42,743 nucleotides of DNA from Eremomyces bilateralis CBS 781.70 (Eukaryota). Shown here one piece after another: positions 23,865-26,825 of the stretch; within the stretch, counting starts at the first letter, position 1; every line of letters begins with the position of its first letter. The translations under genes and the position numbers were made by a program. The DNA lies in NCBI GenBank assembly GCA_010015585.1, contig ML975163.1; one strand, 5' to 3'. The notes beneath the pieces were generated by a model that was not told the origin of the DNA, did not search any database, and worked only from the letters and a program-made list of their open reading frames with translations.

Positions 23865-24361
23865 CCGGCGTTGGGATGTCCCGCTCTGCCTCCAGAAACC
23901 CGGGTCGGCATTCTCTGGCCAAGATAAGTACGGGTAGGGAGGTGCTTATTGAAAGAATGGCTTTGTCATTTCGTGCCATACATCGCCCTAACAGGGCTCC
24001 TTTTCAGCCGAATCGTCCAATCGATACGATCGGCGAACCTTCCGAACGCCAGGAATGATATTCGCTCTCTCGTATTGGACTAGAAAATGAATACCACAGC
24101 TCCATCGTGAGTTCGTGATGTGACTTAAGACTTTTGTTCATCTTTCAGCTTGACCTGAAATGGTTTAGCGTATTGATCTGACTCAGATCGTCATTTGGAC
24201 CAAGACTTTGCAGATTTCGGTTGGGAATAAAATCACACCCGTCCCCCGCTTTGGCTGAACAAATTCAACCAATTTTTATCTCACGCGTCAATCGCGTATC
24301 CTTTCAAGCGTGTTTGATCTGTGTAATATCTGAAAGACATCCTGAAGGAGCGTTGATCAAG

Positions 24362-26653
24362 ATGGGCATGCCATCGTTTGCGGCGTCGAACGCCATCATT
24401 TACCTCACATATGGACTTTTCCTGTAGGCCCTTGGGATAACTGCCAATCATGGATTTGGGGCTAACGGGAGTGCAGAGTTGGTGGAGTCGCGATCGCATG
24501 GCGAGTCCGCACTCACAATACGAAGGAGTATCTCTCCAGCAATGGGACACAGAAGGGTCAGATCTACTACAACCTCGCGACTTTTCTTTGGGGTTTCATC
24601 TGCTGAGGAAGGGTAAGCAAAGGATCTGCCATACTAACCGTGTCTAGGCATACCGCTTGCCCTGAACTTTATAGCTTCGGGTGAGTTGAGCGACCAGCGG
24701 CAGCGACGAAACCACCGGCACGGCCTGGCCTTACTACAGGCCACTTGAGGCGTTCGGGACAATATGGAAGCAAGCATCTACAGTGAAATCCAGGTTCGTA
24801 TCTCATTAGATCTCTCGCGAGGTGTCGGAAGCCGTTGCAATGCAGACAGTCGCTGTTTGCATCGCATCAGGCTTCCGGCCCTCGCGCGGCTTCGCGACGG
24901 GCGCCGAATCCTTTGCAACAGTCCGCGATCCAACCATGATTTTAAGTATCATGGAGATCGTGGATGATTGTAATAGGACGAAGCTGAGAAGTACCGTAAA
25001 TACTCGATCAAGATAATGCTTGCGTGGGGAACGTGCTGCCGCAATCCTCCCCTTTCCCCCTTTCCTTTTGACTGTCATCACTAACGTAGGGCCATATTTG
25101 TCGTCGGATATAGCTCTTGGATCTGGTATCTTGTTTACGTACCCAGAGATTGCAACGCTCTGTGGCGTCCAAGGACTTATCGTCTATGCTCTGTCGAGTT
25201 CCCTGCCGCTCTTGATATTTGGGTACCTTGGTCCCATTATCAGAAAGCGATGCCCGGAGGGTTTCGTCCTGACCGAATGGACGAGACAGAGATACGGAAT
25301 CGTAACGGCGCTGTTCTTGAGCTTCTTCACGTAAGCTGGGTACTTGATTGCCAATGAGTCAAGAAATTAACTTGATGCAGACTGGTGACGTTATTCCTGT
25401 ACATGGTTGCCGAACTATCAGCAATCCAGCAGATTGTCACTGCATTGACCGGCCTGAACGGACTGCCGGCAGTGATTGTGCAATGCGTCGTTACCACAAT
25501 TTATACCAGTGAGTCTCCCACGACGCTCGTGGTGAACCGCAGCTAACTCGTCCTAAAGCTATCGGGGGTTTCAAGGTCTCATTCATCACGGACAACATTC
25601 AAGGCGGACTGGTCTTGCTTATTATCGTGGTGTCCGTGATCTCAGTCGGCGTCGAGACCGACATCGATCGGAGCAAGATTGATTCATCGGGGCTGCTAAA
25701 GTCGAGCCTGCTTGGATGGCAGCTCGTATACATCCTTCCAGTCGCCATTCTCACCAATGACTTCTTCATTTCGGTAAGCGAACCCAGCCATTCTATAGGC
25801 ACCCTCGCTGACTCGCGCCATCCAGGGATTCTGGCTCCGTACATTCGCCGCGAAAACAGACAAGGACCTTCGCATCGGCGTTACCATCGCGACGGTCGTT
25901 GTGGCCATGATTTTGACGTTGGTTGGCAGCTCTGGCCTACTTGCCGCTTGGTCCGGAGTTTGGGAGCCAGATAATGACGACGCTCCAGGAAGCATGGCGC
26001 TCTTCCTCCTCCTGGGTCGGCTTCCAGCCTGGGTTGTAGGTATTGTCCTCGTCATGGTCATCACCCTCTCCACCGCGGCGTTCGACTCTTTCCAATCCGG
26101 AATGGTGGCGAACGGCTCGAATGACCTATTCAAAAATAAGCTTCCGCTCTGGACGGTGAGGGTCTGCGTCGTCCTCGTCATCATCCCCGTCGTGGTTCTC
26201 GCGCTGAAATCACCCGATATCCTGACCATCTACCTGATCTCGGATCTCGTGTCGGCATCCCTCGTTCCGCCACTTCTGGTTGGGCTAGTCGACCGGTTTT
26301 ATATGTGGCGAGGCTTCGAGGTCGTGGTTGGCGGGCTTGGTGGGATCTTGTCCGTCTTTATTTTCGGAACCATCTATTATGGGGACGCGAGGAAGGGTGG
26401 CGAGCTCATCATCCTTCAGGGCGGTCTGTACGGGAGCGATTGGGGCGCGTTTGGTGCCTTCGTCGCCGCCCCTGTTGGAGGCATGCTTTTTGCTCTGGCG
26501 GCATTTGCGCTGCGGATCGGGACGCTGTGGCTGTGGAGCAGATTTGGCAACAGGAAGTTCGATGCGTTCGATCGGCCCGTTGTGCGAGCTGTTCCTGATT
26601 TAGATGATGTTGAGGTGGAGAGCCAGTACGTGGCAAATGGGAAGTTCATTTGA
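24362..26653 (+). CDS. Sodium:solute symporter family transporter (DUR31/NCU01977-type, likely thiamine or thiamine-precursor uptake)
   Basis: Seven exons: MGMPSFAASNAIIYLTYGLFL|...LSSNGTQK|GIPLALNFIAS|ALGSGILFTYPEIA...CPEGFVLTEW...|LFLYMVAEL|GGFKVSFITDNIQG|GFWLRTFAAK...; many TM helices; carries an intronic TPP riboswitch. Confidence 0.9.
24886..25042 (+). promoter_or_regulatory. TPP (thiamine pyrophosphate) riboswitch in intron 24681-25113
   Basis: Core GCTGAGAAGTACCGTAAATACTCGATCAAGATAATGCTTGCGTGGGGA at 24983-25030; P2 ACGG/CCGT; P1 GCGGC..CGCG with CGTG..GCCGC; extended P3 hairpin CGATC..CCATGAT/ATCATGG.GATCG. Confidence 0.92.
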
Positions 26654-26825
26654 GACAGGGTGTGCTGTGAGAGGAGGAGAATCTTTGCAAAGACCTCTCA
26701 GGGCTGGTTGATATTATGCCCAAGTAATCATGGCGATAGTAATCGGAGAGATGTTGGAGCAATCTGTCTTTAACGCTGGTAATCTTCACAACGGCATCTT
26801 GGAAATGTTGCTCTGACTAGCTAGC

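Follow-up and report, generated by a model that had tools for sequence, protein, structure and literature searches.

The closest described relative of the element considered here is the thiamine pyrophosphate (TPP) riboswitch of Neurospora crassa NCU01977, which has been dissected in experiments that included compensatory mutants (PMC3597705). In introns of the NCU01977 type a GC-rich element, alpha, with the consensus RGCGGYRRY, is found near the first donor, and its pairing partner is the 3' shoulder of aptamer helix P1; nearly all species keep at least 11 continuous alpha pairs (PMC3597705). In the parts of two later papers drawn on here, the NCU01977 switch is listed as 'Type II' (Mukherjee et al. 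2018, PMC5882874) and as belonging to the urea-transporter group TPPsw-UREA (PMC11683625). The part of the Candida work drawn on here gives DUR31 as the NCU01977 ortholog and reports both that its splicing depends on thiamin and that the protein transports thiamin (PMC5997356). Here we examine a 42,743-nucleotide (nt) stretch of contig ML975163.1 from Eremomyces bilateralis CBS 781.70 (the window), a fungus of the Dothideomycetes, order Eremomycetales, and within it a 433-nt intron in a gene for a transporter of the sodium:solute symporter family (SSF).

We consider it very probable that this intron, the long one in a gene of the thiamine-transporter type, carries a TPP riboswitch of the NCU01977/DUR31 type that governs which 5' splice site is used. 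The mechanism is already published, and E. bilateralis is a further well-supported example of it; we found no riboswitch report for this species in the literature. What the locus contributes is: (i) a Dothideomycete (Eremomycetales) example in a class whose mechanism came from one species; (ii) RNA contigs in which the predicted internal donor is used; and (iii) a case showing that standard Rfam annotation misses the whole class. The parts of the intron, all on the + strand and listed with the basis of each assignment where one applies, are as follows (a slash marks a splice site).

24681..25113, +, riboswitch intron, 433 nt, phase 1, running from G/GTGAGT to ATAG/CT between ...NFIAS and (A)LGSGILF... 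(sequence, frames, deposited protein model)
24681..24686, +, S1, the productive 5' splice site GTGAGT (sequence and deposited protein model)
24695..24715, +, alpha element, with its core AGCGGCAGC at 24695-24703 and its pairing strand at 24697-24715 (published consensus, duplex energy, minimum-free-energy (MFE) fold, shuffles)
24746..24748, +, in-frame TGA, kept in mRNA spliced from the internal donor (frame 24638..24748)
24792..24800, +, S2, the internal 5' splice site AG/GTTCGTA, with intron start at 24794; its use retains 113 nt (RNA-contig joint)
24886..25042, +, complete TPP aptamer, 157 nt (class model R1; 24/24 hand-assigned pairs canonical)
24886..24896, +, 5' shoulder of P1 (GCGGC, UU, CGCG), pairing with 25032-25042
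24897..24902, +, 5' strand of P2 (ACGG-G-C), pairing with 24991-24997 (columns 100% paired in 30 relatives)
24903..24984, +, P3, 82 nt, a GC/GC base with a long extended hairpin
24927-24934 and 24954-24959, +, class-conserved P3 motifs GAUCCAAC and GAGAUC
24984..24997, +, J3-2 CUGAGA and the 3' strand of P2, GUACCGU (RF00059 alignment; invariant in relatives)
25003..25028, +, P4/P5 arm CUCG-AU-CAAG-AUAAUG-CUUG-CG-UGGG (RF00059 alignment; 100% paired in 30 relatives)
25024..25042, +, alpha', consisting of the 3' strand of P4 (GUGG) and the 3' shoulder of P1 (CGUGCUGCCGC), whose partner is either P1/P4 or alpha
25079..25113, +, branch-site-like CACTAAC at 25079-25085 and the 3' splice site AG at 25112-25113 (sequence; acceptor used in an RNA-contig joint)

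By analogy with the N. crassa and Candida work, the intron would operate as follows. At low TPP, alpha' (25024-25042) would pair with alpha (24697-24715), which would loop out about 300 nt, including the internal donor, and place S1 (24681) beside the acceptor (25113); the intron would be removed in full and the 520-aa transporter made. At high TPP, the aptamer (24886-25042) would instead close its own P1 and release alpha, splicing would move to the internal donor at 24794 or fail, and a minimum of 113 nt, the in-frame TGA at 24746-24748 among them, would stay in the mRNA, which would yield no transporter. TPP binding and the direction of the switch are predictions from these two systems, as is thiamine transport; a role in thiamine import seems plausible for the host gene because Candida DUR31, the stated NCU01977 ortholog, transports thiamin according to the part of that paper cited above (PMC5997356).

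The aptamer and its class

Within this long intron, which interrupts the coding sequence, the aptamer is close to the 3' end. It ends, together with alpha', 71 nt before the acceptor AG, and in relatives this distance is 53-78 nt. The true 5' half of the aptamer, GCGGC-UU-CGCG-ACGG-G-C-GC at 24886-24904, stands ahead of the long P3, and all 24 of the pairs that we assigned (in P1, P2, the P3 base, P4 and P5, arranged around a three-way junction) are canonical. Enforcing the TPP-type fold gives -58.0 kcal/mol as opposed to -60.8 kcal/mol for the unconstrained MFE fold, a cost of 2.8 kcal/mol, and the MFE fold of the isolated aptamer already has P1 and the long P3 hairpin. J3-2 CUGAGA and the P4/P5 sequence GAUC..UAAU.C..GCG..GGA align to upper-case consensus positions of RF00059 and are invariant in relatives. 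We take the J3-2 and P4/P5 motifs to be the ligand contacts known from TPP aptamer structures.

An alignment of 30 homologs (A1) served to scan metagenome contigs for relatives and gave 80 loci. Both exon-end motifs are present in 45 of the 80, and in 41 of these 45 an intron of 397-742 nt occupies the same codon and phase. The 41 loci amount to 35 distinct sequences (36 with the window), which group into 27 clusters at 80% identity. In all 35 related sequences the 3' half of the aptamer is nearly identical, and all have the 5' half GCGGCU(U)CACU-ACGGGCGC, with a P3 of 50-141 nt between the two halves; the same 5' half can be read in the NCU01977 sequence of N. crassa given in the supplement to PMC3597705. 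The P2, P3-base, P4 and P5 columns are 100% paired in an alignment of 30 relatives' aptamers (A2), versus 28-41% when the partner strand is slid.

The class model (R1) was built on this second alignment, with the window excluded. RNAalifold recovered P4 and P5 from the relatives' aptamers but not P1-P3, and the structure was therefore supplied by hand. Run on the 42.7-kb window, the model gave a single match, at 24885-25042 on the + strand, with 124.5 bits (E about 1e-34) over model positions 1-158 of 158, and flagged no non-canonical pair. A preliminary description of the locus, made from the letters of the stretch, had proposed a full TPP aptamer near the 3' end of the intron, and the full-length match together with the canonical pairs bears this out. 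The placement at the 3' end stands, but the 5' strand lies about 100 nt farther upstream than a compact aptamer would suggest.

Three further points concern the 5' part of the aptamer and its P3 arm. The class keeps GAUCCAAC and GAGAUC inside a P3 arm that is otherwise variable. In N. crassa, an aptamer with a shortened P3 binds TPP by in-line probing, and P3 shortening cost only about half of expression, with regulation kept (PMC3597705). One relative, L003, has a tandem duplication of the P1/P2 5' strand at about 467-500, the two copies of C-A-C-N-GCGGGCGCGG being about 17 nt apart, and RF00059 aligns to the second copy.

Alpha pairing and use of the internal donor

The element AGCGGCAGC fits the published consensus RGCGGYRRY, and this core starts 14 nt after the intron start. 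Between 24697-24715 and 25024-25042 there are 8 perfect base pairs (bp), 9 if one G-U is counted and 11 if a bulged A is allowed, with CCAC/GUGG in addition. No stretch between 24600 and the aptamer pairs better with alpha' than alpha does, at -27.3 kcal/mol (the region of the P1 5' shoulder reaches -23.2), and when the intron is folded in full the helix is present in the MFE structure (-179.7 kcal/mol, z -5.6). After dinucleotide shuffling of the upstream intron sequence, the duplex energy was reached in 23/1000 cases anywhere and in 5/1000 within 60 nt of S1. The weight for the predicted pairing comes from the relatives: the long-range alpha helix is in the MFE fold of 34/36 introns, and the flanks of the alpha core covary: of 31 distinct combinations at position -2, 10 have G-C and 9 have A-U. 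The alpha pairing strand begins 16 nt after S1 in the window, compared with 33-82 nt in 35 relatives.

RNA evidence for splice-site use comes from one public run (X1) that covers the locus. That it is RNA is a guess, but its contigs show splicing; the record gives no growth condition. In one contig, with a shorter side of 28 nt, 24793 is joined to 25114, that is, the internal donor to the normal acceptor, so that the in-frame TGA is retained, and an unspliced contig covers 24764-25141. The internal donor at 24794 is real; X1 says nothing on regulation, given that contigs can drop variants and that the condition was not recorded. In the transcript-like metagenome contigs L031, L040, L062 and L064 the other introns are absent and only the 5' part of the riboswitch intron is kept; in L031, set against its genomic relative L033, and in L062, set against L067, the retained part ends exactly at AG/GTTCGT. 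All four transcript-like environmental contigs that cross the junction thus carry the partial-retention, non-productive form.

The internal donor is a conserved feature of the class. GGTTCGT is found upstream of the aptamer in 35/36 introns (26/27 clusters), 112-256 nt into the intron, and the NCU01977 supplement sequence has ATAG/GTTCGT at about nt 495 (PMC3597705). In N. crassa, S1 is at 246 and product III is 249 nt longer than product I (PMC3597705); from these product sizes and the supplement sequence we infer that the GTTCGT site is Li & Breaker's site S3. We found no paper linking GUUCGU/GTTCGT to fungal TPP riboswitches, and Moldovan et al. 2018 may already note a conserved donor. At the other end of the intron, an in-frame, acceptor-like TAG at 25087-25089 lies 24 nt upstream of the used acceptor and 4 nt after CACTAAC; the X1 joint passes over it.

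The remaining claims of the preliminary description concerned the intron and its likeness to the Neurospora switch. The intron that it placed at 24681-25113 is the one removed in the deposited protein (P0001, see below), the TGA put at about 24746 is found at 24746-24748, and the donor-like CAG/GTTCGT at 24794 is both present and used in RNA contigs. The complementarity it noted between 24697-24715 and 25024-25042 is the duplex described above, and the match to NCU01977 holds through the alpha consensus, the SSF host, the 41 loci with the same intron and aptamer, and the use of the internal donor. The five other introns of the gene are 53, 91, 50, 50 and 52 nt, so that the size range of about 50-70 nt given for them applies to all but the 91-nt intron.

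Contrary evidence and alternative explanations

Several observations weigh against a functional switch of the NCU01977 type. The first is that RF00059 gave 0 matches in the whole window at its gathering score of 54.3 bits. In E-value mode the same model gives 34 bits (E 1.2e-4) at 24954-25047, which covers only the 3' two thirds of the aptamer. J3-2, P4 and P5 align well in this match; its 5' part contains several non-canonical pairs and is a false alignment inside the long P3. The score falls below gathering because the model, faced with an 82-nt P3, places a false 5' half inside it, and the shortfall is a limit of the Rfam model and no sign of a missing fold. Relatives behave in the same way: the gathering score is reached by 0/20 related loci, and 9/10 relatives score 33-49 bits in E-value mode. 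In favour of the aptamer as assigned here, the RF00059 match in several relatives with a shorter P3 (L033, L034, L017 and L080) starts 2 nt inside the 5' end that we assigned. In the portion of PMC11683625 cited here, RF00059 is likewise said to truncate fungal aptamers with a P3 above about 60 nt. The preliminary description had named an RF00059 search as a check and the lack of a match as grounds for refutation; the match appears in E-value mode and not at the gathering score, and the refutation test is too strict, since the whole class falls below gathering.

The other contrary observations are as follows: (i) the aptamer pairs in the alignment of 30 relatives include 1 compensatory pair in 23 and are too conserved for covariation support, and since there is only one such pair it is conservation, not covariation, that carries the aptamer argument; (ii) an 8-bp perfect match is on its own near chance, with six inverted repeats of at least 8 nt in 601 nt; (iii) the alpha helix of the window, with 9 continuous pairs including one G-U, is shorter than that of most relatives and is without the 3 outer flanking pairs that most relatives have, running inward instead through G-U, a bulged A, C-G and G-C to CCAC/GUGG on the P4 3' strand; (iv) the X1 contigs did not show the productive joint 24680/25114, although variants can be lost from contigs, and 0/80 metagenome loci have this junction; and (v) thiamine dependence is not shown by X1, the growth condition of the run being unrecorded.

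Of the alternatives, the one that survives best adds to long-range looping and does not replace it. S2 (CAG/GUUCGU, 24791-24799) is complementary to ACGAAGCUG (24977-24985), which comprises the 3' base of P3 and the start of J3-2, at 8/9 positions. It is possible, although we regard it as doubtful, that the switch makes two contacts: besides the alpha-alpha' pairing, the ligand-free aptamer would hide S2 by means of ACGAAGCUG, and TPP would lock that strand and unmask S2, which would amount to an NMT1-like masking layer on top of the looping mechanism. In the ensemble of the window about 6.5/8 S2 nucleotides pair with the ACGAAGCUG strand, and sequestering the aptamer takes the unpaired probability of S2 from 0.18 up to 0.80 but leaves that of S1 at 0.27-0.28. 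This pairing is in the MFE fold of the window, yet it is in that of just 8/35 related introns, and S2 opens in 21/35. Complementarity at positions -2, -1 and +2..+6 is kept in 23-26 of 26 cluster representatives, and the idea would account for the unusual conserved donor +3U/+4C (35/36 sequences), but both strands are nearly invariant and offer no real covariation, the excess at the flanks is small (49/2000 shuffles reach it), and a fixed G.G mismatch sits mid-helix. A search for S2 partners placed the P3-3'/J3-2 strand in the top three in about half of the loci and elsewhere returned weak, scattered matches. A further difficulty is that N. crassa regulation survives single mutation of S2 or S3 as numbered there, and also deletion of S2 and S3 together with S4 kept (PMC3597705).

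We are a little more hesitant again about the fuller version of this idea, according to which AG/GUUCGUA would be a conserved 9-nt element whose +3U/+4C are kept by ligand-free pairing with ACGAAGCUG, the two contacts existing at once and TPP breaking both. If a two-contact switch does operate, it could explain why constructs without alpha still showed a residual response to TPP, from which Li & Breaker concluded that there was an 'other undiscovered route' (PMC3597705). The conservation of AG/GUUCGU and its complementarity to the aptamer bear on the wider matter of splice-site choice by eukaryotic riboswitches.

Two other pairings that involve the aptamer were considered and rejected. The first, between the end of exon 3 (AUAGCUUCG) and J3-2 (inverted repeat I1), was set aside because the Ala codon at this position varies freely among relatives (GCA, GCC, GCT or GCG). 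The second starts from GCAAGCAT (24770-24777), 17 nt upstream of the internal donor, and ATGCTTGC (25016-25023, the 3' strand of P5), which form a perfect 8-bp complement that is in the whole-intron MFE fold. As a conserved second anti-aptamer, the pairing of GCAAGCAU (24770-24777) with the P5 3' strand was dropped, the best partners in relatives being weak and scattered. GCAAGC-like motifs occur in some relatives, at scattered positions.

With respect to the switch of the NCU01977 type itself, a second alternative is that the device is a relic or constitutive, meaning that the aptamer is conserved in sequence but alternative splicing proceeds whatever the thiamine level, with the internal-donor isoform as splicing noise that nonsense-mediated decay clears. 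Such a scenario would fit the RNA contigs, which gave only non-productive or unspliced forms, and a dataset in which there is no condition-dependent RNA. We nevertheless consider it very unlikely, given that the aptamer, alpha, S2 and their spacing are kept across 27 clusters while other intron sequence has diverged to below 80% identity, which argues for selection on the whole device, and given that the N. crassa ortholog was shown to respond (PMC3597705). Least probable of all, to the point of being hardly credible, is that the complementarity of 24697-24715 and 25024-25042 arose by chance and the aptamer acts only locally: the six inverted repeats and the 23/1000 shuffles that match the energy somewhere upstream speak for it, but the position right after S1 (5/1000 shuffles), the fit to an independently published consensus and the presence of the same element, with covarying flanks, in relatives speak against it.

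The host gene and comparison with known systems

The gene that contains the intron has the following structure.

24362..26653, +, host gene, encoding a 520-aa sodium:solute symporter family transporter, with ATG at 24362, TGA at 26651-26653 and seven exons (reading frames)
24362-24423, 24477-24556, 24648-24680, 25114-25330, 25381-25508, 25559-25773 and 25826-26653, +, exons of the host gene

A protein search with the last exon found the deposited protein P0001 (hypothetical protein, Eremomyces bilateralis CBS 781.70, 520 aa), which is 100% identical to the exon model and includes the junction ...NFIAS/ALGSGILF..., with 24681-25113 removed. The full protein matches the Pfam SSF family PF00474 at 33.1 bits (cut-off 22.8); in a Pfam search of single exons 0/4 matched. 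Its best homologs in a protein search are SSF proteins named 'urea transporter', and the homologs include proteins of Nannizzia gypsea, Coccidioides posadasii, Parastagonospora nodorum and Fusarium verticillioides, which are species in Fig. 4 of Li & Breaker (PMC3597705). By Pfam match, homolog names and species, the host gene would belong to the SSF 'urea-transporter-like' ortholog group of NCU01977/DUR31.

On 24100-26800, the X1 RNA contigs show introns 1, 2, 4, 5 and 6 as GT..AG joints exactly as modelled. Intron 2 (24557-24647, 91 nt) is unusual in that a weak donor, GTCAGA, is in use, as the RNA-contig joint confirms, and a consensus-like GTAAGC lies at 24613, 56 nt downstream of the used donor and right after an in-frame TGA (24604-24606); no joint from this downstream donor was found in the X1 RNA contigs. 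The branch site of intron 2 is a perfect TACTAAC (24632-24638). The deposited models of the relatives P0003, P0018 and P0040 go wrong at the riboswitch-intron junction, one of them with added residues between NFIAS and ALGSG and two with unrelated N-termini that begin just before LGSGILF. Automated annotation of relatives thus seems to fail on the riboswitch intron.

How, then, does the locus compare with systems already described? With the general RF00059 model it shares the three-way junction of P1-P5, J3-2 CUGAGA and the P4/P5 motifs, and it differs in its 82-nt P3, with a score of 34 bits against the gathering score of 54.3. Like N. crassa NMT1 and THI4 (Cheah et al. 2007, as described in passages of PMC3597705), it would be an OFF switch that acts by 5' splice-site choice, and in those genes, too, aptamer strands pair with the donor region when TPP is absent. 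Unlike the window, NMT1 and THI4 have their riboswitches in introns of the 5' untranslated region, act via upstream open reading frames and use P4-P5 to mask the proximal donor, again according to the passages of PMC3597705; in the window the main contact would be that of the P1 3' strand with a distal element near the productive donor. Candida parapsilosis DUR31 (Donovan et al. 2018, PMC5997356) is alike in its orthologous transporter family and in having a TPP riboswitch in a coding-region intron, and the passages of that paper cited here do not describe long-range alpha pairing.

The differences from N. crassa NCU01977 (PMC3597705) are mainly of dimension: (i) the intron is 433 nt in the window, whereas that of N. 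crassa spans nt 246-929; (ii) alpha begins 16 nt after S1 as opposed to about 70 nt; (iii) the gap between alpha and alpha' is 330 nt as opposed to about 530; (iv) the helix is shifted inward, the 3 outer pairs being absent and the pairing extending to the inner part of P1 and the 3' strand of P4; and (v) one good internal donor is evident, as opposed to three (S2-S4) in N. crassa. In other respects the two are closely alike. In both, an SSF 'urea-transporter-like' gene is interrupted within its coding region by a long intron, and this intron has an alpha element of the form RGCGGYRRY just after the first donor that pairs, or in the window is predicted to pair, with the P1 3' shoulder, a long P3, and an internal donor whose use leads to a premature stop. 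The likeness extends to the sequence printed in the NCU01977 supplement, which has the same aptamer 5' half and the same AG/GTTCGT internal donor as the intron of E. bilateralis.

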